Part shown: positions 1 to 13,111 of the stretch, one piece after another
How the letters are laid out: every line of letters starts with the position of its first letter
Position numbering within the stretch: the first letter of the stretch is position 1
From: a virus
Taxonomy: Duplodnaviria > Heunggongvirae > Uroviricota > Caudoviricetes
Virus record (IMG/VR): IMGVR_UViG_2703718818_000015
Location: 1 to 13,111 of that record
Direction: 5' to 3' (one strand)
Length of the DNA stretch: 13,111 nt
The notes under the pieces: model-generated
Databases searched by the model: none
What the model saw: the letters and a program-made list of their open reading frames with translations, nothing else
What the model was told of the DNA's origin: nothing
Translations under genes and position numbers: made by a program

Positions 1-1053
1 TTACGGGGTAATGCCAACCGTTGCCGCCACTTTGTCGCCACTTGGCAGCGTTGCCAGAGGATTGAAACGGAGCGCCGTTTCCAGATGATCCGGTGCCAGA
101 TGTGCGTAACGCATAGTCATTTTTATATCGTGGTGTCCGAGAATTTTTTGTAAGGCCAGAATGTTTCCACCCGACATCATGAAGTGCGCTGCAAACGTAT
201 GGCGCAGAACGTGTGTGAGTTGACCGCGAGGGAGCACGATAGACGTTTTTTCCATCACGGATAAAAATTGAAAATAGCAGTCTGTGAAGAAATTGAACCC
301 ATCGAGCGCCATGATCTCTTCGTAAAGCTCTTTACTGATAGGGATGCTTCTGTTTTTCTTCCCCTTCGTTCTGACAAAGGTAATTCGGTATTTGGTCACC
401 TGTGAGCGGGTAAGATTTACGGCTTCACGCCAGCGTGCGCCTGTGCTTAAGCATATCTTAACTACCAGTGCCAGAATTGGGTCCTGACGTTTGCAATCAG
501 CCAGCAATTCAACAATCTGCTCATGGGTAAGCCATGCCATCTCTTTTTCTGCGATGGTGAATTTTCGCATGTTCTCCAGTGGGTTCGGATACGACCATTC
601 GCCCAGACGGGATAGTTCGCTAAAAACACTACTTAGATAGCTTTGCTCCAGGTTAATGGTGACCGGGCTTGCTCCTTTCTTCCATTTCTCGCTGAAGTAG
701 ATCTCGCCTGTCAGGCGTTTATCTCGATAGTGGGCAAACATTTTAGAGGTGAGATCGGTTGCAAGAGGATTGCCCAGAGCGTCAACCATCAACAGCAATT
801 TGTCATAGACATGCTGCCCAGCTGTCAGAGATTTACCATGTAGTTTGAACCATAGTTCAACCACGTCTTTCAGTGTTCGACGATCCACTGATTCACCCAG
901 CCAGGGCTTTGCTTCGGCTTCTTCCATCGTGTGACGCTCAAAAGCCAGTGCTTCGCCTTTGGTGGCGAATTGTTTACGCACACGACGCCCACTTCGTCCG
1001 GCGGGGTAACATTCGCAAAGCCATTTCCCTGTGGTGAGTTTTCGTACTGCCAT
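1..1053 (-). CDS. int: Phage tyrosine integrase (P2/186 family), 350 aa
   Basis: 350-aa ORF with C-terminal tyrosine-recombinase pattern (...HVLRHTFAAHF...MRYAHL...). ATG at 1051-1053 is preceded on the minus strand by GGAGGG. Sits at the prophage end next to the repressor operon. Stop codon is at 1-3, so the CDS is complete. Confidence 0.9.
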   Translation of the reverse strand: MAVRKLTTGKWLCECYPAGRSGRRVRKQFATKGEALAFERHTMEEAEAKPWLGESVDRRTLKDVVELWFKLHGKSLTAGQHVYDKLLLMVDALGNPLATDLTSKMFAHYRDKRLTGEIYFSEKWKKGASPVTINLEQSYLSSVFSELSRLGEWSYPNPLENMRKFTIAEKEMAWLTHEQIVELLADCKRQDPILALVVKICLSTGARWREAVNLTRSQVTKYRITFVRTKGKKNRSIPISKELYEEIMALDGFNFFTDCYFQFLSVMEKTSIVLPRGQLTHVLRHTFAAHFMMSGGNILALQKILGHHDIKMTMRYAHLAPDHLETALRFNPLATLPSGDKVAATVGITP

Positions 1054-1058
1054 AAAAA

Positions 1059-1079
1059 ATGCCCTCCAGTGGAGAGCAT
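1059..1079 (-). promoter_or_regulatory. 21-bp imperfect palindrome/hairpin flanked by A6 and T5, overlapping the int Shine-Dalgarno; candidate terminator/attenuator or operator
   Basis: ATGCCCTCCAGTGGAGAGCAT pairs at 9 of 10 arm positions. Read on the minus strand the stem is followed by TTTTTT and then the int ATG. The GGAGGG SD lies inside the 3' arm. Confidence 0.4.
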
Positions 1080-1106
1080 TTTTACTGTATGTATAACCAG
1101 TGTCAA
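1078..1106 (-). promoter_or_regulatory. Putative sigma70 promoter for int (-35 TTGACA, 16-17 bp spacer, A/T-rich -10)
   Basis: The minus-strand reading of 1101-1106 is a perfect TTGACA. A TAAAAA/AAAAAT -10-like hexamer lies 16-17 bp downstream (plus-strand 1078-1084). Hexamer match only, no experimental support. Confidence 0.3.
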
Positions 1107-1131
1107 TGTATGATGCTTAAGGTTACATACA

Positions 1132-1503
1132 TCATAAGTACCGATATGATTGCGGGGCCGTTATGTTATCACCTAATGAACTTAGATGAAGTGGTTGGTC
1201 ATAGATTTTTAGATTACCAATTTCTATAGCAAAGGCCTTTTCTTTGCTATGAAAATATGAGTCAAAAAATTGTTTACTGATACCCGCGTATTGGCTTGTT
1301 TTTTCCCATACAATACTTGGCTTGTCTTCTATAACATCTGCAATGTCAAATTCAGCAACAACTTTACCGACAGGCATTGTTGAATAAATAACCACAGATT
1401 TTACATCCGGTTTTTTGAAAATTCCTTTTCGGAATTCAAATTTCTTTGTTCCATTAAGGATTTTTTCTACATGCTCTGGGTTAATTGACAATAATACTTT
1501 CAT
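1132..1503 (-). CDS. ASCH-domain (PUA-like fold) protein, ~123 aa; cargo gene 3
   Basis: ORF 1132-1515; likely ATG start at 1501-1503 (a TTG at 1513-1515 is the alternative). GxKxxExR signature of ASCH domains present (G-T-K-K-F-E-F-R, nt 1429-1452). Size and N-terminal KVLLSI...EKIL pattern are typical of stand-alone ASCH proteins. Start overlaps the 3' end of the upstream gene by 23 nt. Confidence 0.7.
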   Translation of the reverse strand: MKVLLSINPEHVEKILNGTKKFEFRKGIFKKPDVKSVVIYSTMPVGKVVAEFDIADVIEDKPSIVWEKTSQYAGISKQFFDSYFHSKEKAFAIEIGNLKIYDQPLHLSSLGDNITAPQSYRYL

Positions 1504-2551
1504 TGACGCCACCAAGTTTAATAATGCTATTAAACTGTTCGTTTGTTAACTTCATGATCCCCCAGTAAGCTCGCGGGGATAATCCTACTTCAGAAATAAG
1601 TTTAGCACGATTTAGTCTTTTGGGCAAAGCAAGGTTATATGTAAAGCTTATAATATATGGGTATTTTTTTGTTCTATAAAAACTTTTAAGCTCAGATTCT
1701 GTAAAAACAGAATATCTAGAACAGTAATTTAGAAATTCTTTCTCTGTAACGAAAGAGTTTATATTTCTAACTTTTTCTACTACACATAAAGAAGTAGCAA
1801 CAGAACGGTAATATGCAGGCCCTTGATTATCGGATGTTCGGTATATAACGATTATATCGTTTGGCTTCATTAATTCAACATCTGACATGCCACAAATATA
1901 TACTTTTCTAATGCTATTTGCATATGATACATCAGCAACAACGTCTGGTGACTCTGTAATTAATTTTGAGTCAGGGAATAAACGAGTATGAAATACGGGG
2001 TATATTGAAAGCAAGAATTTATTTTCACTGCCTCTGTTATTAATAAATGGATAATCTGACAGTATATCGCCCGTAAGAGCATTACTATTCATTTCTTTTA
2101 TTAGTACTCGCTCTACACCATTTTCAGATTCTTTTACTCCAATATCTATAAAGCCATAGATTTTGAATAGTCTAATTAAGTAGTCATGTTTTTCAAAAAC
2201 AGTCACATATATATTGTTAGCATTATTATCTAGAGCGTGATCGAATATTTTTTTTAAAAATCGTTGACCACGAAGAGTTCCTTTTGGATTAAATTTAAAT
2301 GTTCCAACTTTTAGATGAATACCATCAGGAATATTTGGTTTTGTATCTTCAATGATACCTACTTCTGTTTTTAGATACAAAAAACCATCAATTTTATTTT
2401 GTTCATCATAAAGGACATATGCATAATCATTTGATTTACATTTAGAATGGAACCAATCAATAAACCCATGAGCATAATCGGATTTTAAAGAGTCAAAAAA
2501 AACATCAGAAAAATCTACTTGATTAAAAGGTATGTATTTTAAGTTTTCCAT
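1481..2551 (-). CDS. Two-domain protein, 356 aa: N-terminal GNAT-like (acyl-CoA N-acyltransferase fold) region, C-terminal PUA/ASCH-like region; cargo gene 2
   Basis: ATG at 2549-2551 with AGGA ~10 nt upstream, 2 nt after the stop of the upstream gene. N-terminal ~145 aa shows GNAT-like pattern (...YVLYDEQNKIDGFLYLK... / ...NNIYVTVFEKHDYLIRLFKIYGF...). C-terminal ~170 aa has beta-rich PUA-like character (...KVYICGMSDVELMKPNDIIVIY...). Domain calls are by eye only. Confidence 0.65.
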   Translation of the reverse strand: MENLKYIPFNQVDFSDVFFDSLKSDYAHGFIDWFHSKCKSNDYAYVLYDEQNKIDGFLYLKTEVGIIEDTKPNIPDGIHLKVGTFKFNPKGTLRGQRFLKKIFDHALDNNANNIYVTVFEKHDYLIRLFKIYGFIDIGVKESENGVERVLIKEMNSNALTGDILSDYPFINNRGSENKFLLSIYPVFHTRLFPDSKLITESPDVVADVSYANSIRKVYICGMSDVELMKPNDIIVIYRTSDNQGPAYYRSVATSLCVVEKVRNINSFVTEKEFLNYCSRYSVFTESELKSFYRTKKYPYIISFTYNLALPKRLNRAKLISEVGLSPRAYWGIMKLTNEQFNSIIKLGGVNESIIVN

Positions 2552-2553
2552 GT

Positions 2554-3336
2554 TTACAATCCTATTTTAAAATCACATGATAAGCAAATTGATTTAGTTT
2601 TAGATATGACGGCGAGTGTTTTCCCCGGAGTTTGACAATTAGTACAAACATTCCAATTTTTCGGTTTTCCATCAATCTTATATATGTTGGCTAAAATATC
2701 ATCTAAAGGAAAAAATGTTTTCATCATGTCTATAATGCTTGCTGCATAGTTTTTCTTTGCCTCGGCTAATTTTTGTTCAGGCATGTTTTTATCATTTATC
2801 AAGCAATGAACCAGGTTATTAAGAGGCTCTTGATATATCTCCTCTCGAAAAATTAGAAATGCACTTAAAAAGTCTTTACGTATTTCTTTATTATTACTTT
2901 TACCTAAGTGAATTACTTTATTTCTTTCTTTGCGCAAAATATCATAAATTTCATTAAAGCGCGGTGAAAGATTTCGCCCACTGATACTTTGTGCTATTCT
3001 ATGTAGTTCGGTTGCGTCTAATGTTGAACATTCGAAAAAAGATTTGTTTTTATAGCAGTCTTTTACTTCTTTTAAAAGTAAATAAACACTATGCTCAGCA
3101 ATTATAGACTTTAGATATATTTCAGCAGAATTAAAGAGTATTACCAAGCCAGATTGAAAGAAACTCTCTTTTTCGGATATTAAGCGTTTCAGTCGTTGTT
3201 CTTCTGTTTCAGGTTGAGCTGGGGCTTGCAATAACTCAATGTCAGAATAAAAGTGTAAGTAGAATGTTTTAATGAAAAACTCAAGGTTCCTTTTGGCATA
3301 AAGAAGCATCTCTTCATTGTTAGGAAGGTCTGTCAT
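2554..3336 (-). CDS. HEPN-like protein with C-terminal C4 zinc ribbon, 260 aa; cargo gene 1 (putative RNase-type effector)
   Basis: ATG at 3334-3336 directly abuts the cI stop (3337-3339), with AAGGA 7 nt upstream. R-N-K-V-I-H (residues 138-143, nt 2908-2925) matches the HEPN Rx4-6H motif in a helical context. C-terminus has CxxC-x16-CxxC (C231, C234, C251, C254). Very AT-rich coding sequence. Confidence 0.65.
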   Translation of the reverse strand: MTDLPNNEEMLLYAKRNLEFFIKTFYLHFYSDIELLQAPAQPETEEQRLKRLISEKESFFQSGLVILFNSAEIYLKSIIAEHSVYLLLKEVKDCYKNKSFFECSTLDATELHRIAQSISGRNLSPRFNEIYDILRKERNKVIHLGKSNNKEIRKDFLSAFLIFREEIYQEPLNNLVHCLINDKNMPEQKLAEAKKNYAASIIDMMKTFFPLDDILANIYKIDGKPKNWNVCTNCQTPGKTLAVISKTKSICLSCDFKIGL

Positions 3337-4293
3337 TTAAATATCCTTATATATACCAAAACATTTTGCTATTACATTAATATCCGCTAATAGACATTCA
3401 AAAGTTGTACTTTCATTAGATACTTTTACTTTTGCAATTGGAATTCTGGTTAGATCTCTAACACTAAATTTTCCTTCGATTTCAACTAACCATTTTCCAT
3501 CGGTTACTTCATCAAATGCTTTGTCTGCAAGATATACATTTCCTTCATCTACTATAGATATGGGTTTTTTCACCTTGCTGGGTAACATGGTTTTATCAAA
3601 AGGGAGATAATTTGTATCAAACAACATACCATTTATAACTTTTTTCCGTGTGATAGCAATAATATCGCTCTTAGCGTCTTCAAAGACAGGACCATTACCG
3701 GTTGTTAGCCACATTAATGAAGCTCCGGTTTCAAGTGCGCACTGGATGATCCAATCAGCTGGAAAGGTATCTCTCATGTAACGATTGGCTAATGTGCTTT
3801 TTGAAACACCAATGTGATCCGCTAGAGCTTGCCTTGTCTTAAATCCATAGGCGATAACTATTCGCTCGATTGCCGCTTTTCCTCCTTGATTAACCTCAAT
3901 GAGGCTCTCGTTCTTTCGGTGAGTATTGTTCTCATTTGGGGATTTTGTGTCTAAAGTGAGAGAATGAATCTCCTTACCATCTTTATGGTGGTTCTGTTCT
4001 GTATTATGTGTGACAGCCTCTACTGTGTTATCGGTACCAAATGCCAACCATTCAACCGACACGCCAGTTTCCATGCTGCAGATTATGACCCAGTCGGCAG
4101 GGAAGGTATCACGAGCATATCTGTTCGCCATTGTGCTTTGGGATATCCCTAAGTGGTTACAGAATGCTTGACGTGAAGTGAAGCCATAAGCTTTCAAAAT
4201 TCGGTCAATGACCTGTTGTCCTCCACGATTCTGCATGATTACAGTTTTCATTGCATCATCAACATGGCGAAATGTGATTTTGTGTGTTGACAT
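3337..4293 (-). CDS. cI: Phage 186-type CI immunity repressor with duplicated N-terminal HTH domain, 318 aa
   Basis: Residues ~141-318 resemble 186 CI (HTH N-domain then oligomerisation C-domain). Residues 28-87 are an internal repeat of residues 141-200, roughly 60% identical by eye (both contain ...AYGF..RQA...G.S.ST.ANRY.RDTFPADW.I.C..ETG...WL). ATG at 4291-4293. Divergent from apl. Confidence 0.8.
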   Translation of the reverse strand: MSTHKITFRHVDDAMKTVIMQNRGGQQVIDRILKAYGFTSRQAFCNHLGISQSTMANRYARDTFPADWVIICSMETGVSVEWLAFGTDNTVEAVTHNTEQNHHKDGKEIHSLTLDTKSPNENNTHRKNESLIEVNQGGKAAIERIVIAYGFKTRQALADHIGVSKSTLANRYMRDTFPADWIIQCALETGASLMWLTTGNGPVFEDAKSDIIAITRKKVINGMLFDTNYLPFDKTMLPSKVKKPISIVDEGNVYLADKAFDEVTDGKWLVEIEGKFSVRDLTRIPIAKVKVSNESTTFECLLADINVIAKCFGIYKDI

Positions 4294-4381
4294 ATCCGTT
4301 TTGCGATCCTATTCTCCGATTTGTGAAGTTGAAGTCACGATTAAAACCTGCTTATCACAAGACAATAGGAGATGTTGCATC
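4294..4381. promoter_or_regulatory. cI/apl divergent switch region (expected location of lytic/lysogenic promoters and operators)
   Basis: 88-bp gap between divergent cI and apl start codons. Contains apl SD AGGAG (4366-4370) and a tandem GAAGTT/GAAGTC repeat (4325-4336). Promoter hexamers could not be assigned confidently. Confidence 0.4.
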
Positions 4382-4603
4382 ATGACCCCTAACATTTCAA
4401 TAACTCTGAATACGCCACACGTCACAATTGAGCGTTATAGCGAACTTACTGGTCTTTCGATCGACACAATCAACGATATGCTGGCTGATGGTCGCATCCC
4501 TCGGCATCGTCTCCGTAAAGACAAGAAAAGAGAAAAGGTAATGATCAACCTTGCTGCTCTTACCGTTGATGCACTGACTGATTGCAATGTTGTATTCAAC
4601 TAG
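4382..4603 (+). CDS. apl: Apl/Cox-like excisionase and transcriptional regulator, 73 aa
   Basis: ATG at 4382 with AGGAG 11 nt upstream. HTH-like segment ([25 protein letters not shown]). Sits between cI and cII as in phage 186. The longer ORF 4208-4603 has its 5' extension antisense inside cI and is rejected. Confidence 0.65.
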
Positions 4604-4635
4604 TTCCATTTTGAGATACATCAGGGATGTCGACT

Positions 4636-5145
4636 ATGTTTGATTACCAAGTTTCCAAACATCCACATTTTGATGAAGCCTGTCGTGCATTCGCATTGCG
4701 CCACAACCTGGTGCAACTGGCAGAACGTGCAGGCATGAATGTGCAGATTCTGCGGAACAAGCTGAACCCAGCTCAACCTCATTTATTAACCGCACCAGAA
4801 ATCTGGCTGCTTACCGATCTGACTGAAGATTCAACGCTGATAGATGGTTTTCTGGCACAGATTCACTGCCTGCCATGTGTACCGATTAATGAGGTAGCAA
4901 AAGAGAAACTGCCGCATTACGTCATGAGTGCAACCGCAGAGATCGGGCGTGTTGCTGCAGGTGCGGTATCTGGCGATGTAAAAACCAGTGCAGGTCGTCG
5001 TGATGCTATCAGCAGCATTAACTCTGTAACACGACTGATGGCGCTGGCTGCTGTTTCATTGCAGGCCCGTTTACAGGCTAACCCTGCGATGGCGAGTGCA
5101 GTTGATACCGTGACTGGCCTCGGCGCCTCATTCGGTTTGCTGTGA
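4636..5145 (+). CDS. cII: Phage 186 CII-type lysogeny establishment regulator, 169 aa
   Basis: Strong resemblance to remembered 186 CII ([21 protein letters not shown]...[17 protein letters not shown]...[27 protein letters not shown]...). ATG at 4636 with AGGGA 8 nt upstream; an in-frame ATG at 4627 is the alternative. Confidence 0.85.
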
Positions 5146-5152
5146 GGTACTT

Positions 5153-5449
5153 ATGCTGACGAAAGAACCATCATTTGCATCGCTGCTGGTAAAGCAAAGC
5201 CCGGCAATGCACTACGGTCACGGCTGGATCATGGGTGAGGATGGAAAACGCTGGCATCCATGTCATTCACAAGATGAATTGCTGTCTCAATTGACCACGA
5301 GGAAACGGAGAAAGTCAAAATGTATGCAGCGGAAAGTGAAGTGGTTTATCAGTTTCGTTACAGAGGGGAGAGTTATTCAGTACCTGAAGATGATTTGCTC
5401 TGTTGTTATCCGTCGTTGTCGGGCGATGGCAGTTACTTTTTCACGCTAA
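5153..5449 (+). CDS. Hypothetical early protein (98-aa ORF; C-terminal third overlaps the next ORF in another frame)
   Basis: ATG at 5153 with GAGG 5 nt upstream, immediately after the cII stop. The N-terminal ~55 aa look protein-like; the C-terminal part overlaps ORF 5320-5544. Confidence 0.4.
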   Translation: MLTKEPSFASLLVKQSPAMHYGHGWIMGEDGKRWHPCHSQDELLSQLTTRKRRKSKCMQRKVKWFISFVTEGRVIQYLKMICSVVIRRCRAMAVTFSR

Positions 5450-5544
5450 AAGATGGGACGTTTTTACGGGGAGAGCAGGTTAAAGAGACGATACGAAAAA
5501 ATGTATCTCCTCTTGAACGTTACCGTAATAACAAACAACGATAG
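5320..5544 (+). CDS. Hypothetical small early protein, 74 aa
   Basis: ATG at 5320 with GGAGAAAG upstream. Protein-like composition. Overlaps the 3' part of ORF 5153-5449 in a different frame. Confidence 0.45.
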   Translation: MYAAESEVVYQFRYRGESYSVPEDDLLCCYPSLSGDGSYFFTLKDGTFLRGEQVKETIRKNVSPLERYRNNKQR

Positions 5545-5566
5545 TTGCGTTTTGGGGATATGAATT

Positions 5567-5908
5567 ATGGCAATTAATGGCGCTGCGGCGACTGTTCCAT
5601 TAAGCCCCGGTGAACGCCTGAATGGACTTAATCACATTGCGGAGCTAAGGGCGAAAGTTTTTGGCCTGAATATTGAGTCAGAGCTTGAGCGGTTTATTAA
5701 AGATATGCGTGATCCACGGGATATCAATAATGAACAAAATAAACGGGCACTGGCTGCCATATTCTTTATGGCAAAAATTCCAGCTGAACGTCATAGCATC
5801 AGCATTAATGAGCTGACCACTGACGAAAAGCGGGAGCTGATTAAAGCAATGAATCATTTTCGTGCAGTGGTGAGCTTATTTCCCAGACGGCTAACCATGC
5901 CGAATTAA
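5567..5908 (+). CDS. Hypothetical phage early protein, 113 aa
   Basis: ATG at 5567 with GGGGA 7 nt upstream. Co-directional with the early operon. No motif recognised. Confidence 0.55.
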   Translation: MAINGAAATVPLSPGERLNGLNHIAELRAKVFGLNIESELERFIKDMRDPRDINNEQNKRALAAIFFMAKIPAERHSISINELTTDEKRELIKAMNHFRAVVSLFPRRLTMPN

Positions 5909-5975
5909 CCAACTAATGAAATTAATGGCGTAAACCCGCCGGGCATCCCTTTATCTAAATTCAGGAGAATTGATT

Positions 5976-6209
5976 ATGCGTAATATTGAAACCCTCACGA
6001 CTAAAACCGGACCGGATGACGCAGGGCTTAATATTTTACTGACAGAGGCTCGTCTGGAAGAACGCCGGGCAAGGGCTGAAGCAATGGCAGCTCGCCTTGA
6101 TAGCCTGGCGTGTCATATCTCATCCCGTCAGCTAAACCACGTGGAAGCGGCAGAACTGCTGCGTGTGACTGCTGAAGCAATCCAGAACGAAGCGCAGGAG
6201 ATCCACTAA
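5976..6209 (+). CDS. Hypothetical small helical protein, 77 aa
   Basis: ATG at 5976 with AGGAG 8 nt upstream (ORF-track start 5970 is a TTG). Stop TAA overlaps the next start (TAATG). Confidence 0.55.
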   Translation: MRNIETLTTKTGPDDAGLNILLTEARLEERRARAEAMAARLDSLACHISSRQLNHVEAAELLRVTAEAIQNEAQEIH

Positions 6210-6436
6210 TGGCTGATGCAATGGATCTCGTACAGCAGCGCGTTGAAGAAGAACGCCAGCGCCATATCCGTGCTGCCCGTGCCAAAACGCCGGGCGTGTC
6301 CCGCGTGCTTTGCGTTGAGTGTGAAGCGCCAATTCCGCCAGCACGCCGCCGTGCCATTCCGGGTGTGCAGCTTTGCATTACCTGTCAGGAAATCGCAGAG
6401 CTGAAAGGTAAACATTACAACGGAGGTGCTGTATGA
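6209..6436 (+). CDS. TraR/DksA-family C4 zinc-finger protein, 75 aa
   Basis: C-x2-C-x17-C-x2-C (C35, C38, C56, C59), the spacing characteristic of DksA/TraR zinc fingers. AGGAG 8 nt upstream. Stop overlaps the dam start (ATGA). Confidence 0.75.
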   Translation: MADAMDLVQQRVEEERQRHIRAARAKTPGVSRVLCVECEAPIPPARRRAIPGVQLCITCQEIAELKGKHYNGGAV

Positions 6437-7290
6437 GCACCATCCTGAAATGGGCGGGAAATAAAACCGCCGTAATGTCCGAACTGAAAAAACATCTTCC
6501 TGCTGGTCCGCGACTAGTTGAACCTTTCGCGGGTTCCTGTGCTGTGATGATGGAGACGGATTATCCCTGCTATCTGGTTGCGGATATTAATCCTGATTTA
6601 ATCAACCTCTATAAAAAGGTTGCCGCTGATTGTGAATCGTTTATATCTCGCGCCAAAGTTTTATTTGAGATCGCAAACAGGGAGGTGGCTTATTACAACA
6701 TAAGGCAGGAGTTTAATTACTCAACTGAAATTACTGATTTCATGAAAGCGGTATATTTCCTGTATCTCAATCGTCACGGTTACCGTGGGTTATGTCGCTA
6801 TAACAAGAGCGGGCATTTCAACATTCCCTACGGTAATTATAAAAATCCGTATTTCCCTGAAAAAGAAATTCGCGCTTTTGCAGAAAAAGCCCAGCGAGCA
6901 ACGTTTATCTGCGCCAGCTTTGATGAAACGCTGGCGATGTTGAAGGCGGGGGATGTGGTGTATTGCGATCCGCCTTATGACGGTACGTTTTCCGGCTATC
7001 ACGCTGACGGCTTTACTGAAGATGACCAGTATCACCTGGCATCCGTTCTTGAACATCGGTCATCAGAAGGACATCCGGTCATTGTTTCTAACAGTGACAC
7101 ATCCCTGATCCGTTCGCTGTATCGCAATTTTACTCACCACTATATCAAGGTAAAACGCAGCATCGGCGTAGCAGCTGGTGAGAGTAAATCAGCAACAGAA
7201 ATCATTGCTGTTTCCGGGCCGCGCTGCTGGGTGGGATTTGATTATTCGCGTGGCGTGGATAGTTCTGCCGTGTACGGAGTACGTGCATGA
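6433..7290 (+). CDS. dam: Dam-family DNA adenine (N6) methyltransferase, GATC-type, 285 aa
   Basis: Close resemblance to E. coli Dam over the whole length (LKWAGNK SAM motif, LVEPF.G, ADIN.DLI.LY, FLYLNR.GY.GLCRYN, catalytic DPPY). GGAGG SD 7 nt upstream. Confidence 0.9.
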
Positions 7291-8333
7291 GCCATGCCGA
7301 TATGAGCAACTGCTGCGGCTTTAACGAGGCTGCCGCATCGTTCTCATGGAACAGCCCGAAAAAGGCCATTAACCCTTATCTGGACCCGGCGGAAGTTGCG
7401 CCGGTTTCTGCGCTTTCAAACCTGATCACTCTGTACGCTGCCGATAACGAGCAGGAACAACTGCGCCGCGAGGCACTGAGTGATCAGGTCTGGGAGCGTT
7501 ATTTCTTTAATGAATCCCGTGATCCTGTCCAACGCGAAATAGAGCAGGATAAGCTCATTAGCCGGGCAAAGTTGGCGCATGAGCAGCAGCGTTTTAACCC
7601 GGACATGGTCATTCTGGCAGACGTCAGCGCCCAGCCCTCCCATATCAGCAAGCCGCTGATGCAACGTATTGAATACTTCAGCAGCCTGGGCAGGCCAAAG
7701 GCTTATTCCCGCTATTTACGTGAGACGATTAAGCCATGTCTGGAACGACTGGAGCATGTACGCGACAGCCAGCTATCTGCATCTTTTCGTTTTATGGCAA
7801 GCCATGTAGGGCTGGACGGCCTGCTGATTCTGCCTGAAATGAGTCAGGATCAGGTGAAACGCCTGTCTACCCTTGTCGCTGCGCATATGAGCATGTGCCT
7901 TGATGCAGCTTGTGGTGATTTGTATGCCACCGATGACGTTAAGCCGGAAGAAATCCGCAAGACATGGGAAAAGGTGGCAGCGGAAACCCTGCGTCTGGAT
8001 GTCATCCCGCCTGCGTTTGAGCAACTCCGTCGGAAAAGAAACCGCCGTAAACCCGTGCCCTATGAACTCATTCCGGGTTCGCTGGCGCGTATGTTGTGCG
8101 CCGACTGGTGGTACCGGAAATTATGGAAAATGCGTTGCGAATGGCGGGAAGAGCAGTTGCGTGCTGTCTGCCTGGTCAGCAAAAAAGCATCTCCCTATGT
8201 CAGCTATGAAGCCGTGATGCATAAACGTGAGCAGCGCCGCAAGTCACTGGAGTTTTTCCGTTCTCATGAACTGGTGAACGAAGAGGGCGACACGCTGGAT
8301 ATGGAAGACGTGGTATCAGTGCAGCGCGGGTGA
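7287..8333 (+). pseudogene. A: Replication initiation gene A, N-terminal ~348-aa fragment (3' half deleted)
   Basis: Position after dam, as the replication gene in P2/186. C-terminal region resembles the remembered P2 gpA mid-region (...WWY.KL......W.E..L.AV..V.K..SPY.S..A....R.....LEF...). Full-length gpA is roughly twice this size, and the ORF is followed 46 nt later by tail gene U. Confidence 0.6.
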
Positions 8334-8379
8334 AGGCAAAAGCCAGGAGTAACTACAGCGATCAGGGGGGATACGACGC

Positions 8380-8850
8380 ATGATGATGGTGCTGGGATTG
8401 TACGTGGTGCCGTATCAGGAGCTGCAGTATCAACGCAGCTGGCGACATGCGGCAAACAGCCGGGTAAACCGACGTCCGTCCACGCAGTTTCTGGGACCGG
8501 ACAACGACATGCTGACGCTTTCCGGTGTTCTTATGCCGGAGATAACAGGTGGCAGGCTGTCGTTGCTGGCACTGGAGCAGATGGCAGAACAGGGGAAAGC
8601 ATGGCCCCTGATTGAAGGCAGCGGCACGATTTATGGCATGTATGTGATTGAGGGACTGAATCAGACTAAAACGGAGTTTTTCCGCGACGGTATGCCGCGC
8701 CGGATTGAGTTCACCCTGTCGCTCAAACGGGTGGATGAATCCCTGTCCGATATGTTCGGTGATCTCAGTGCGCAGCTGAATAATCTGCAGGGAACGGCAA
8801 CATCTGCCTTAAGCGATATCAGTAAAACGGTGGGAGGGCTTCTGTCGTGA
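8380..8850 (+). CDS. U: P2-type tail protein U, 156 aa
   Basis: Resembles remembered P2 gpU (MML.LG...; ...LSGVL.PE.TGG.L...L....AE.G.AWPL..G.G.IYGMYVI...F...G.PR.I.FTLSL.RVDESL). Stop overlaps the start of D (GTGA). Confidence 0.85.
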   Translation: MMMVLGLYVVPYQELQYQRSWRHAANSRVNRRPSTQFLGPDNDMLTLSGVLMPEITGGRLSLLALEQMAEQGKAWPLIEGSGTIYGMYVIEGLNQTKTEFFRDGMPRRIEFTLSLKRVDESLSDMFGDLSAQLNNLQGTATSALSDISKTVGGLLS

Positions 8851-9947
8851 ATTTCAGCTCTGAACTGCTTAACAAAGGCAACAAAACTCCGGCATTCAGC
8901 ATCAGTATTGAAGGCAGGGATATCACCACTGTGCTGGACAACCGCCTGATGGGGCTTACGCTGACGGATAACCGGGGCTTTGAAGCGGACCAGCTTGATC
9001 TGGAGCTGGACGACGCTGACGGAAAAATCGTGCTGCCGCGCCGTGGTGCGGTCATTACGCTGGCGCTGGGCTGGAAGGGGCAGCCGCTTTTCCCGAAAGG
9101 GGCATTCACGGTGGACGAGATTGAACACACTGGCGCACCGGACCGCCTGACTATCCGGGCGCGAAGTGCTGATTTTCGGGAAACGCTGAATACCCGCCGT
9201 GAAAAGTCGTGGCACAAGACCACGGTCGGGGAAGTGGTGAAGGAAATAGCCGCGCGGCACAAACTGAAGATGGCACTGGGTAAAGACTTGTCGGATAAAC
9301 CCGTGGAGCATATAGACCAGACCAATGAGAGTGACGCCAGTTTTTTGATGCGGCTGGCGCGCCAGTACGGTGCTATTGCGTCGGTGAAAAATGGCAATCT
9401 GTTATTCATCCGACAGGGACAGGGTAAAAGTGCCAGCGGTAAACCACTGCCGGTGATCACTATCACACGTAAGGACGGCGACAGTCACCGCTTTACCTTG
9501 GCAGATCGCGGAGCCTATACGGGCGTAATTGCCAGTTGGTTGCATACCCGCGAACCCGCGAAGAAAGAAAGCACAACGGTGAAGCGTAAGCGCAGGACTA
9601 AGAATCAGAAGAAAGAGCCGGAAGCGAAGCAGGGCGATTACCTGGTGGGTACGGATGAAAACGTGCTGGTACTTAATCGCACTTATGCCAACCGGAGCAA
9701 CGCTGAACGGGCAGCGAAAATGCAGTGGGAACGCCTGCAACGCGGCGTTGCGTCATTCTCGCTACAACTGGCGGAAGGGCGGGCAGATCTCTACACGGAA
9801 ATGCCTGTGAAGGTCAGTGGCTTTAAACAGCCGATAGATGATGCGGAATGGACCATTACGACTCTGACGCATACCGTCAGCCCGGATAATGGTTTTACGA
9901 CCAGTCTGGAGCTTGAAGTGAGGATTGATGATTTCGAAATGGAATGA
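8847..9947 (+). CDS. D: P2-type tail protein D, 366 aa
   Basis: Resembles remembered P2 gpD (TPAF.....G.DIT..L..RLM.LT.TDNRGFEADQLD.EL.DADG...LP.RGAV...). GTG start at 8847 with GGGAGGG ~10 nt upstream. Immediately precedes ogr as in P2. Confidence 0.85.
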   Translation: MNFSSELLNKGNKTPAFSISIEGRDITTVLDNRLMGLTLTDNRGFEADQLDLELDDADGKIVLPRRGAVITLALGWKGQPLFPKGAFTVDEIEHTGAPDRLTIRARSADFRETLNTRREKSWHKTTVGEVVKEIAARHKLKMALGKDLSDKPVEHIDQTNESDASFLMRLARQYGAIASVKNGNLLFIRQGQGKSASGKPLPVITITRKDGDSHRFTLADRGAYTGVIASWLHTREPAKKESTTVKRKRRTKNQKKEPEAKQGDYLVGTDENVLVLNRTYANRSNAERAAKMQWERLQRGVASFSLQLAEGRADLYTEMPVKVSGFKQPIDDAEWTITTLTHTVSPDNGFTTSLELEVRIDDFEME

Positions 9948-10037
9948 TTCTTCGCAATGGAGAACTTTTAAGTTTGCAAAATGGAATAATGCGGTATCAT
10001 TATTGTGAATTTAGCAAAAATGGGGAGAACTCGAAAA

Positions 10038-10256
10038 ATGATGATTTGCCCACTGTGTGGAAGTGCCGCCCATACTCGCAGCAGTTTTCAGGTATCTTCA
10101 TTGACCAAAGAGCGTTACAACCAGTGCCAGAATATTAACTGCAGCCATACTTTTGTAACCCATGAAACTTTTGTTCGTTCGATTGCAACGCCAAAAGAGT
10201 CAAATCCGGTTCAGCCGCATCCAATGAAATCAGGACAGGTGGCGCTCTCTCTTTGA
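10038..10256 (+). CDS. ogr: Ogr/Delta-family zinc-finger late-gene activator, 72 aa
   Basis: CPLC...C.N.NC zinc-finger arrangement and length matching P2 Ogr (72 aa). ATG at 10038 with GGGGAG 10 nt upstream. The longer ORF-track start (10005) is a GTG and is rejected. Confidence 0.85.
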   Translation: MMICPLCGSAAHTRSSFQVSSLTKERYNQCQNINCSHTFVTHETFVRSIATPKESNPVQPHPMKSGQVALSL

Positions 10257-10336
10257 CGCTGCCGCCATTTTGTCGCCATCGTTAAAAAACAGTGCTTCTA
10301 ACGTCATGATTTTAAAAGGCATAAACTTCAGGCAAC

Positions 10337-10379
10337 AAAAAACCCATCAACCTTGAACCGAAATGGCGGGGTTGATGGG
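10337..10379 (-). terminator. Rho-independent terminator, minus-strand sense; probable ybjL terminator
   Basis: 10-bp perfect inverted repeat CCCATCAACC (10343-10352) / GGTTGATGGG (10370-10379). On the minus strand the stem is followed by TTTTTT (complement of 10337-10342). Lies 113 nt downstream of the ybjL stop. Confidence 0.5.
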
Positions 10380-10491
10380 CTCCACAAAATGGGGACATCA
10401 AAGAAAAGCAGTGGCACTAATTAAGACTGATGCCCTGCGGAAAAGTTCTGCGGTTGTGCAAAAAAATTTCATTTTCAGGGCAACTTCAGTT

Positions 10492-12177
10492 TTATCCTAA
10501 TCCTGGCCATACCATGACGATGATTGTCCCTGCCAGCGTCAGCAGGACGTTGGCGATTGCATAGGTGCCCGCATAGCCCAGCGCCGGGATGTTACTGCGA
10601 GCTGTATCACTGATGATCTCCATTGCCGGCGCGCAGGTACGTGCGCCCATCATTGCGCCGAACAACAGCGCGCGGTTCATTCGCAATACATAAGCACCGA
10701 ACAAGAAACAGATAACCACGGGCACCAGACTGACAATCAATCCGGCAATCAACATCTGACCGCCAATCGCGCCCAGGCCGTTATTAATACCGCTACCGGC
10801 GCTCAGACCAACGCCTGCCATAAACACCATCAAGCCGAACTCTTTCACCATGCTTAATGCACCCTGCGGAATGTAACCGAAGGTCGGGTGGTTAGCACGC
10901 ATAAAGCCCAGCATAATTCCGGCGAATAACAACCCGGCAGCGTTCCCCATGCCGAAACTGAATGTGCTGAACTGGAAGGTGATCATCCCGATCATCAGCC
11001 CAATAACAAAGAAGGCGCAGAATGCCAGCAGGTCAGTGACCTGGCTGTGAATCGAGATAAAGCCGATGCGATCGGCGATGGTTTTTACGCGGCGGGCATC
11101 GCCGCTGACTTGTAAAACGTCACCTTTGTTAAGCACGACGTTGTCATCTATCGGCATCTCAATCTGGCTACGAATGACGCGGTTAAGGAAGCAACCGTGA
11201 TCGGTCAACTTCAGTTGTGCGAGACGTTTACCTACAGCGTTATGGTTTTTAACGACCACTTCTTCAGTGACGATACGCATGTCGAGAAGGTCACGATCGA
11301 AAACTTCTTTACCGTTACGGAAGCTGGGATCGAGTCGGGCATGGGCGTCGGGATAGCCTACCAACGCTATTTCATCGCCCATTTGTAGCACGGCATCACC
11401 GTCTGGATTTGCCAGAATCCCGTTACGTCGAATACGTTCAATGTAGCAGCCGGTTTGTCGATAAATACCCAGTTCACGCAGATTTTTGCCGTCGGTCCAG
11501 GCCACCAGTTCCGGGCCGACGCGATAGGCGCGGATCACCGGTAAATAAACCTTACGGTTGGCATCAGTGTCCAGGCCACGTTCGCGGGCGATTTGCTGGG
11601 CGCTGGTCTGTAAGTCCTGATGCTGCAATTTCGGCAAGTAACGCGCACCAACAATCAAACTCACCAGACCGATTAAATAGGTTAAGGCATACCCGAGGCT
11701 CAGATTATCCAGTGCCAGTGAGAGCTGCCTGCTTTCCATGCCGGAATGACGCAGTGTATCGCCAGCACCGACCAGAACCGGTGTCGACGTCATAGAGCCT
11801 GCTAACATACCGGCCGTCAGGCCAATATCCCAGCCAAACAGCTTACCTAACCCTAAGGCGATCACCAGCGCACTGCCAACCATCACCAGTGCTAACATTA
11901 GGTAATTTTTCCCATCGCGAAAAAAAATGGAAAAAAAGTTCGGTCCGGCTTCGACCCCGACGCAGAAAATAAACAGCATAAAGCCAAGATTAAGCGCATC
12001 GGTGTTAATGCTGAAATGTTGTTGGCCTAATAACAGCGATACGACTAAAACGCCAATGGAATTACCCAGTTGGATCGAACCAAGTCGTAACTTTCCGAGA
12101 CATAGCCCAAGCGCGAGGACCACAAATAATAACAGAATGTAATTCCCATTTAACAATTCGGCGACGTTTATATTCAC
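10492..12177 (-). CDS. ybjL: Putative AAE-family transporter YbjL (membrane protein with two TrkA-C/RCK_C-like domains), 561 aa
   Basis: Recognised as E. coli YbjL ([18 protein letters not shown]...). GTG start at 12175-12177. Hydrophobic N- and C-terminal halves flank a soluble central region. Confidence 0.95.
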
Positions 12178-12446
12178 GGAGGCTAACTTCTTGTTTACTA
12201 GTAAGCTGTTGAAAGAAATGGTAATTTACGATAATGTTTTTTACCAGAATTCAGGGCGCAGATTCATTCAGCGCACCTAAACGATAGTAAAGCAACAATA
12301 TATTTTACTAGTGTAATCACATTAGGTATCAACGGCTATATGAATTGCGTTGGCCTATATTAGCATGGAATGCGAAGCGGCTTTATCTTACTGAACGCCA
12401 CACTGGCGAAAAATGTGTTCGATAGACGCAGTGTCAGGAGGAACGA

Positions 12447-12824
12447 GTGAAACATAAACAACGTTGGGCGGGGGCAATCTGCTGTTTTGTCCTCTTCATT
12501 GTGGTGTGCCTTTTTCTGGCGACGCACATGAAAGGCGCTTTTCGGGCTGCCGGGCATCCTGAAATCGGCTTGCTATTTTTCATTCTTCCTGGAGCAGTCG
12601 CCAGCTTCTTTTCACAGCGTAGAGAAGTCCTGAAACCTCTGTTTGGCGCAATGCTGGCGGCACCCTGTTCGATGCTCATTATGCGGCTGTTTTTTTCACC
12701 GACGCGCTCATTCTGGCAAGAGCTGGCATGGTTACTAAGCGCGGTGTTCTGGTGTGCGCTGGGGGCACTGTGTTTCTTATTTATCAGTAGTTTGTTTAAA
12801 CCACAGCACAGAAAAAATCAGTAA
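12447..12824 (+). CDS. ybjM: Inner membrane protein YbjM, 125 aa
   Basis: Recognised as E. coli YbjM (MKHKQRWAGAICCFVLFIVV...). GTG start with AGGAGG 6 nt upstream. Strongly hydrophobic. Confidence 0.9.
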   Translation: MKHKQRWAGAICCFVLFIVVCLFLATHMKGAFRAAGHPEIGLLFFILPGAVASFFSQRREVLKPLFGAMLAAPCSMLIMRLFFSPTRSFWQELAWLLSAVFWCALGALCFLFISSLFKPQHRKNQ

Positions 12825-12843
12825 AGCCCTCAACGCGAGGGCT
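12825..12843. terminator. Bidirectional intrinsic terminator between convergent ybjM and grxA
   Basis: Perfect 7-bp stem AGCCCTC / GAGGGCT with 5-nt loop, directly after the ybjM stop. On the minus strand the stem is followed by TTTACTG. Confidence 0.6.
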
Positions 12844-12853
12844 TGTCAGACGA

Positions 12854-13111
12854 TCAGGCGTCCAGATTTTCTTTCACCCATGCAGCAAAATCGGTATAGC
12901 CGCCGATATGTTGCTGATCGACAAAAATCTGCGGCACGGTTTCTACGGGTTTACCTGCCTTTTGTTGTAGATCTTCTTTAGTGATCCCTTCCGCACGAAT
13001 ATCTACATACTGATACTGAAAATCATCGCGTTCATTGCTCAATTTCTCAGCCAGATCTTTTGCACGCACACAGTAAGGGCAACCCGAACGACCAAAAATA
13101 ACGGTTTGCAT
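12854..13111 (-). CDS. grxA: Glutaredoxin 1, 85 aa
   Basis: Recognised as E. coli GrxA with CPYC active site (MQTVIFGRSGCPYCVRAKDLAEKL...). The start codon is the last three bases of the window, so the CDS is complete. Confidence 0.95.
   Translation of the reverse strand: MQTVIFGRSGCPYCVRAKDLAEKLSNERDDFQYQYVDIRAEGITKEDLQQKAGKPVETVPQIFVDQQHIGGYTDFAAWVKENLDA

Follow-up and report, generated by a model that had tools for sequence, protein, structure and literature searches.

The window analyzed here is a 13,111-nt stretch of DNA (positions 1 to 13,111 of the IMG/VR record IMGVR_UViG_2703718818_000015, Caudoviricetes). It contains a defective 186/P2-like prophage beside a glutaredoxin gene and the gene of a 561-aa Asp-Al_Ex/TrkA_C transporter, which we take to be ybjL. 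On its minus strand follow one another the genes for the CI repressor, a 260-aa protein, the acetyltransferase PDC-M11A, the ASCH protein PDC-M11B, and the integrase (Table 1). Our subject is the 260-aa protein, which very probably is a HEPN-type endoribonuclease with a zinc-binding tail (HEPN-ZnR), judged from its sequence relatives and predicted fold. We propose that it serves as the accessory RNase arm of the GNAT-PUA/ASCH pair in an abortive-infection module expressed by the lysogen, a reading to which we assign a probability of roughly 55%.

Table 1. Features of the cargo operon and its flanking genes in the 13,111-nt window
Feature	Position (nt)	Strand	Basis
HEPN plus zinc-ribbon open reading frame, 260 aa, short form, HEC-08-like	2554..3336	(-)	Translation
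Helix-2 motif LFNSAEIYLK, aa 67-76, with the conserved acidic residue E72	3109..3138	(-)	Conservation in alignments A1 and A2, HEC-08 alignment
Catalytic-type Rx4H motif RNKVIH, aa 138-143, closing helix 3	2908..2925	(-)	Conservation, HEC-08 alignment
C-terminal C4 zinc ribbon (predicted), aa 226-256	2569..2661	(-)	Invariant Cys and W228, beta-strands in the AlphaFold2 model
CTNC, aa 231-234	2635-2646	(-)	First knuckle of the predicted zinc ribbon
CLSC, aa 251-254	2575-2586	(-)	Second knuckle of the predicted zinc ribbon
HEPN-M11A junction, ...ATA GGA TTG TAA AC ATG	2549..2565	(-)	Shine-Dalgarno-like (A)GGA in the last codons; ATG 2 nt past the stop
PDC-M11A, 356 aa, GNAT acetyltransferase plus C-terminal PUA-like (ASCH/EVE) domain	1481..2551	(-)	PADLOC 2.4e-130
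PDC-M11B, 127-aa ASCH protein, 35-nt overlap with M11A	1132..1515	(-)	PADLOC 4.9e-48, Pfam ASCH 3e-5
CI repressor, 186-type, two helix-turn-helix copies	3337..4293	(-)	Pfam Phage_CI_repr (twice) and Phage_CI_C
Prophage integrase, closing the CI-cargo-int block	1..1053	(-)	Pfam Int_N and Phage_integrase

A preliminary description of this DNA, made from the letters alone, had proposed a HEPN RNase with a zinc ribbon on the strength of the RNKVIH motif, a helical stretch of about 130 residues ahead of it, and the two CxxC pairs. Translation returned the 260-aa reading frame, the motif, and the cysteines C231, C234, C251, and C254 exactly where that description had placed them, and the AlphaFold2 model has helices from residue 7 to residue 144. 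The motifs differ in what they are worth by themselves. Among composition-preserving shuffles of the 260-aa protein, a bare Rx4H occurs in 18% of the sequences, RNx3H in 1.4%, and the pattern CxxC-(10-30)-CxxC in 0.12%. Hence, Rx4H alone is weak evidence, whereas the cysteine pattern is not. Residue conservation is a stronger argument than these chance levels.

The short form of the protein is rare: only 24 clusters were found among 5.8 billion proteins, from Enterobacterales and one Photobacterium, all of about 260 aa and all annotated as hypothetical. When 1.84 billion representatives were searched exhaustively with a profile, 352 relatives came up at an E-value of ≤1e-3, most of them about 300 to 360 aa long, and tblastn with the HEPN protein gave no match in 50,697 phage records. 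In the short-form alignment (A1; 21 members, 36 to 80% identity), R138, N139, V141, I142, H143, G145, W228, and all four cysteines are invariant, as are residues 67 to 74 and K76 of the helix-2 motif; L75 is nearly so. In the alignment of 48 relatives with about 20% identity to the query (A2), the only invariant columns are L111, R138, N139, and H143, and E72, K76, and the four cysteines are conserved in at least 90%. Nonsynonymous divergence (dN) among the family genes is 0.16 to 0.52 and synonymous divergence (dS) is saturated; therefore, this is a protein-coding gene under purifying selection.

The longer relatives form a family (A4) of proteins of about 310 to 360 aa, such as "hypothetical proteins" of Methylobacterium and Bradyrhizobium. 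They share with the 260-aa protein the HEPN domain, including an N-terminal MIxxxP helix, and the first zinc ribbon, but they alone have a second Cys4 module (Cx4C...CxxC). A comparison of A1 with A4 by hhalign shows homology across the whole N-terminal domain (probability of 99.7%, E-value of 3e-26). The query protein belongs to a small clade of short forms, which lost the second zinc ribbon and retain one.

AlphaFold2, run with the family alignment, gave a model with a predicted local distance difference test score of 91.7 and a predicted template modeling score of 0.88. Helix 2 spans residues 57 to 82 and includes E72; an insert (83 to 124) leads to helix 3 (125 to 144), which ends with RNKVIH, and a loop with the invariant G145 connects the motif to helix 4 (152 to 168). 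A helical linker (172 to 218) is followed by strands at 227 to 229, 241 to 243, and 249 to 251 that flank the two CxxC knuckles. By the published definition, a HEPN domain has an acidic residue within helix 2 and an insert ahead of helix 3; its Rx4-6H motif closes helix 3 and extends into the loop that leads to helix 4 (Anantharaman et al. 2013, PMC3710099). With its motif at the end of helix 3, a polar residue directly after the arginine (R138-N139), and E72 in helix 2, the secondary structure of the 260-aa protein fits this definition. The HEPN proteins listed under the fold comparison are YutE, TT1696, the HEPN toxin 7ae2, HI0074, and the HEPN domain of sacsin, with Csx1, Roquin, LAS1L, HepS, AbiA, and LsoA lower in the list.

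Matches to defense-system models are weak but point in the same direction. With the PADLOC hidden Markov models, the query protein matched DUF3644 at 2.4e-5 and Csx1 at 0.0096. The relatives matched more widely, 29 of the 48 to DUF3644 and 20 of the 48 to HEC-08 (best E-value, 1.3e-7), and there were also matches to CARF-HEPN and Cas13b/c. The 260-aa protein did not reach the gathering threshold of the Pfam-A model for DUF3644, the EC042_2821-type HEPN. We place it, as far as profile comparison allows, in the DUF3644/HEC-08-like branch of the HEPN superfamily. The helical topology, the HEPN-model matches, the conserved residues, the cysteine knuckles, and the alignment to an experimentally tested protein, HEC-08, together support the HEPN plus zinc-ribbon reading of the preliminary description.

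HEC-08 is a single-gene anti-phage system with a HEPN domain and zinc fingers, and mutation of H128 in its Rx4-6H motif abolishes defense (Payne et al. 2024, bioRxiv 10.1101/2024.01.29.577857). We compared our alignments with the tested sequence, that of Escherichia coli ECOR52 (WP_150698383.1/WP_001313577.1; Table S2 of Payne et al.). The long-form family aligned to it with an E-value of 4.5e-6 and a probability of 87% (hhalign). From both A1 and A4, R138-N-K-V-I-H143 falls on R123-N-R-V-V-H128 of HEC-08, and SAEIYLK falls on AVEILLK, with E72 on E56; H143 is thus the counterpart of the residue required for HEC-08 defense. Both proteins have an N-terminal DUF3644-type HEPN domain with the helix-2 motif xAxEIxLK and RNxVxH, followed by C-terminal Cys4 zinc-binding modules, and both are found in mobile or defense contexts of Enterobacteriaceae. 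The differences are equally clear. Over 84 aligned columns the two are only about 25% identical; the protein of the window has 260 aa and one zinc ribbon, compared with 366 aa and several ribbons in HEC-08; and HEC-08 occurs as a single gene within Hma systems, whereas the gene studied here always opens an operon that includes a GNAT-PUA gene and has an ASCH gene alongside. The PADLOC model of HEC-08 (PDLC04162) gave 12.9 bits and a nonsignificant E-value of 0.01. By these comparisons, the 260-aa protein is a distant relative of HEC-08 rather than a member, and it stands outside every Pfam and NCBIfam family as well.

The locus also differs from the HEPN/MNT type II/VII toxin-antitoxin systems (e.g., SO_3166/SO_3165, PDB 5yep; HEPN toxin 7ae2/8xdj), whose canonical HEPN toxins have about 130 aa and no zinc ribbon. 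There is no adjacent MNT gene; the neighbors encode CI, a GNAT-PUA protein, and an ASCH protein, and no nucleotidyltransferase domain was found, so we rejected an assignment to these systems. Searches of PDB sequences with phmmer and hmmsearch gave no match to HEPN/MNT toxins. Some other matches were dismissed as chance: Pfam P_C10 (0.028), the only Pfam-A match at an E-value of ≤1; eS27, which aligned outside the zinc-ribbon region, and YoeB (0.05) among PDB sequences; and, for A4, Cys-rich cytochromes and C2H2 fingers in the same database.

The second line of evidence is the linkage of the HEPN gene to M11A. In each of the 15 loci that carry a short-form HEPN gene, M11A lies directly downstream, in settings that include a 186-like prophage, a Dickeya locus without a called CI or integrase gene, Photobacterium, and locus L040. 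In the last two, the adjacency is kept at 35 to 36% HEPN identity, and in both the ASCH gene lies on the opposite strand. Divergence of the HEPN protein tracks divergence of M11A, and among the loci sampled the short form was never seen away from M11A. The spacing between the two genes is also conserved: in each of nine loci inspected, the HEPN stop codon is followed after 0 to 2 nt by the M11A start, and GGA(G) is present in all. The GGA codon of the invariant Gly259 forms a Shine-Dalgarno-like (A)GGA(G), at 2560-2565 in the window and 7 to 9 nt upstream of the M11A start, which may be why this glycine is invariant.

The position upstream of M11A is not reserved for the HEPN gene. In close M11A relatives (E. 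coli A30, Brenneria, Raoultella, and Scandinavium), the same prophage slot holds a gene for a protein of about 355 aa with a C-terminal transmembrane segment. Members of this unannotated family have about 355 to 405 aa (L056 4951-6015 in E. coli A30; L005 3888-4964; L007; L009; L031; L001 10912-12129), and the proteins of the cI-M11A slot have no Pfam or PADLOC match. A distant homologue (27% identity, E-value of 2e-19) occurs in a Photobacterium operon with stand-alone GNAT and ASCH genes. The transmembrane protein may be an alternative effector. Elsewhere, M11A is directly preceded by genes for a P-loop kinase, a coiled-coil/transmembrane protein, or the Kiwa protein KwaB; the last case looks like a neighboring defense system rather than an accessory gene. 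The slot upstream of M11A behaves like an exchangeable accessory position.

What is the downstream pair? Its GNAT-PUA gene (A) adjoins an ASCH gene (B), the arrangement that defines PDC-M11, and a structure model confirmed the GNAT plus PUA-like architecture of M11A. In phage PhiR47_2 (L053 2989-4417; GenBank PV340567.1), an M11A homologue with 57% identity is annotated as "GevT toxin" and the ASCH homologue as "GevA antitoxin." The pair lies directly downstream of cI in this lambdoid phage. Lambda has rexAB at the corresponding place. The literature collection that we searched contained no experimental study of PDC-M11 or GevT/GevA.

(PIN)-GNAT-EVE plus ASCH operons have been described as predicted toxin-antitoxin systems; many have a PIN RNase at the N terminus and an AAA_17 ATPase, and a PIN-less form is common in beta- and gammaproteobacterial prophages; HEPN goes unmentioned there (Bell et al. 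2020, PMC7641849). The M11A/B pair of the window is such a GNAT-EVE plus ASCH operon; this operon type, the PADLOC candidate system PDC-M11, and "GevT/GevA" are one and the same. Its location in a gammaproteobacterial prophage matches these systems, and an RNase module N-terminal of GNAT-EVE is a known theme among them in the form of PIN. In the known systems, however, PIN is fused, whereas the RNase of the window would be a HEPN protein encoded by a separate upstream gene, and HEPN is not part of the PDC-M11 definition. The idea that the N-terminal extension of about 150 aa in long PDC-M11A proteins is a fused HEPN domain found no supporting evidence; the literature says PIN.

Some variants of the pair were seen along the way. 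In the Methanothermobacter prophage psiM100 (L054 2036-3881), ORFD, a 492-aa long M11A-like protein with 26% identity over the GNAT-PUA part and an N-terminal extension of about 155 aa, is followed by the ASCH gene ORF5 within the "inserted fragment IFa"; neither Pfam nor NCBIfam recognized its N-terminal domain. A small P-loop kinase-like protein recurs beside M11A or in the ASCH operon (L023 4467-4997, L036 4463-4996, and L040 7914-8423); it has AAA_17/AAA_18 matches and a weak one to PADLOC VakA and corresponds to the AAA_17 ATPase of the operons of Bell et al. In Vibrionaceae, Shewanella, and related loci (L001, L021, L024, L025, L027, L035, and L040), M11B lies on the opposite strand, convergent with M11A and sometimes separated from it by one to three genes; in Enterobacterales both are on one strand and overlap.

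Position would also link the cargo to the lysogenic state. The HEPN ATG directly abuts the TAA stop codon of the CI gene (sequence at 3334-3339), and no terminator-like site was seen on the minus strand between CI and int. Expression of the cargo from the lysogenic cI transcript is therefore likely, as read from the sequence. The three cargo genes have a G+C content of about 30%, compared with about 50% in the flanks, and the low value extends into the 3' part of the CI gene. CI has 318 aa counted from the first ATG and 299 aa in RefSeq; CI proteins beside homologous cargo elsewhere have 186 to 207 aa, and that of E. coli A30 has 217 aa. The cargo itself is uncommon: 1,136 of 5,426 complete E. 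coli genomes match part of a 4.7-kb int-cargo-cI query, only 28 have the cargo of the window, and across these 28 the HEPN gene is at least 99% identical. A gene in a prophage cargo operon beside PDC-M11A/B fits the abortive-infection and toxin-antitoxin context that the preliminary description had associated with HEPN RNases.

The remaining prophage genes encode CII, DUF5347, TraR, Dam, a truncated gpA that abuts GpU, GPD, and Ogr. At 7287-8850, replication gene A ends after 348 aa (Phage_GPA profile 1-152 of 321), and GpU begins within the next 47 nt, with GPD and Ogr after it; the prophage is therefore a deletion remnant that lacks the portal, terminase, and capsid genes and most of the tail genes. 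An intact version occupies this site in E. coli ExPEC (extraintestinal pathogenic) XM.

How could the three proteins work together? We hypothesize that the HEPN gene, the first after cI, belongs to a lysogenic operon and is translationally coupled to M11A ("GevT"), which is followed by M11B ("GevA"), and that all three cargo genes would be expressed in the lysogen. HEPN-ZnR would be a latent endoribonuclease, probably a dimer as other HEPN RNases are, with a composite site of R138, N139, and H143 in which E72 assists. The protein would stay inactive until a phage infects; it would then cleave RNA (tRNA, rRNA, or mRNA) in a metal-independent reaction and so shut down translation. It might act with or downstream of the GNAT-PUA "toxin," with the ASCH "antitoxin" in control, a role that would parallel that of the N-terminal PIN domain in PIN-GNAT-EVE proteins. 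The zinc ribbon may bind nucleic acid or a partner.

Several results weigh against this proposal. For the HEPN assignment, Foldseek found no match with an E-value of <0.2 in the PDB, HMMER searches of PDB sequences, run with the protein and with alignments A1 and A4, returned nothing relevant, and the 260-aa protein had no significant match in Pfam-A, NCBIfam, or PHROGs; the short-form alignment matched the tested HEC-08 with an E-value of 4e-4 and a probability of only 35%. For the coupling to M11A/B, 33 of 34 species-level genome loci of the pair are without the HEPN gene, and 2,613 M11A clusters compare with 24 HEPN clusters. Since M11A/B mostly occur without it, the HEPN protein is not a core component; it is an accessory one, probably functionally coupled to M11A/B, though some of the linkage could stem from inheritance together in a single cassette. 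The PIN analogy, finally, comes from the literature: Pfam and NCBIfam detected no PIN domain in psiM100 ORFD or in a 375-aa Halalkaliarchaeum protein annotated as "PIN domain-containing," so that for PIN we depend on the account of Bell et al. and on a RefSeq product name.

A serious rival, which we consider possible though not probable, is that the protein is an autonomous single-gene abortive-infection protein of the HEC-08 type that merely shares a cassette with an independent GevT/GevA pair. There would then be no functional cross-talk, and the zinc ribbon would be the protein's own sensor or an autoinhibitory domain. HEC-08 does defend as a single gene, and at the three loci examined the long-form relatives are solitary genes in defense islands with no M11A/B nearby, among varied neighbors (CBASS, Thoeris-type TIRs, a reverse transcriptase, and a restriction-enzyme-like gene of the DpnII/MboI family). 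These neighbors, like the low G+C content of the cargo, also count in favor of a defense role in our main proposal. The many M11A/B loci without a HEPN gene speak for autonomy too, as do the unrelated cargo stacks found in prophage cI-int slots, of which the E. coli genomes that match only part of our query are an example. Against it stand the invariable adjacency, which holds at identities as low as 35% and also at loci with a relocated ASCH gene, and the conserved stop-start spacing with its embedded Shine-Dalgarno-like sequence. Moreover, the clade that lost the second ribbon is the one found only with M11A in our sample, and the transmembrane protein of the same slot likewise recurs with GNAT and ASCH genes.

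A bolder version of the coupling, which we regard as unlikely, makes HEPN-ZnR a stand-alone, nonhomologous replacement of PIN that joins the GNAT-PUA protein in a complex and confers "mark-and-cut" immunity directed at RNA. The acetyltransferase, guided by its PUA-like domain, would acetylate a specific RNA (for example, an aminoacyl-tRNA or a cytidine), the HEPN RNase would cut the marked RNA or be licensed by it, and reversing or restraining the mark would fall to the ASCH protein; the same-slot transmembrane protein would be an alternative effector. If this were true, GevTA/PDC-M11 would be a modular sensor with swappable effectors.

Even less probable, in our view, is an adaptor or regulator with a HEPN fold but without nuclease activity, in which the RNx3H residues serve ligand binding and not cleavage; its ligands might be RNA or nucleotides, or it might serve the GNAT toxin as a specificity factor or second antitoxin. 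The arginine, asparagine, and histidine and the helix-2 glutamate, however, show the highest conservation in this entire branch of the superfamily, the equivalent histidine is essential for HEC-08 defense, and several non-RNase HEPN families are listed as lacking a conserved Rx4-6H (Anantharaman et al. 2013). A motif that arose by chance in a helical protein unrelated to HEPN would agree with the frequency of bare Rx4H in shuffled sequences, the lack of a curated family match, and the empty Foldseek result, but it was already disfavored and we consider it very improbable.

In summary, we describe the 260-aa protein as a short version of the HEC-08-like HEPN/zinc-ribbon defense proteins that is embedded in an operon and tied to a GNAT-PUA/ASCH module. 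In 28 of 5,426 complete E. coli genomes and in other Enterobacterales this protein bears no annotation beyond "hypothetical"; it now gains a fold, a predicted active site of R138, N139, and H143 with E72, and a proposed role. The analysis also joins two lines that had been separate, the HEC-08-type HEPN/zinc-finger defense proteins and the uncharacterized GNAT-EVE/ASCH (PDC-M11, "GevTA") prophage modules, and it suggests that these modules recruit different accessory genes (a HEPN RNase, a membrane protein, a P-loop kinase, or a fused PIN) at one position. A HEPN fold in a prophage cargo gene is in itself unsurprising; the recurrent coupling of HEPN with GNAT-PUA and the exchangeable slot offer a way into an uncharacterized system. 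If the coupling is real, the operon would be a compact three-gene system in which to study the cooperation of an acetyltransferase toxin with an RNase in abortive infection, as well as PUA-like sensing.

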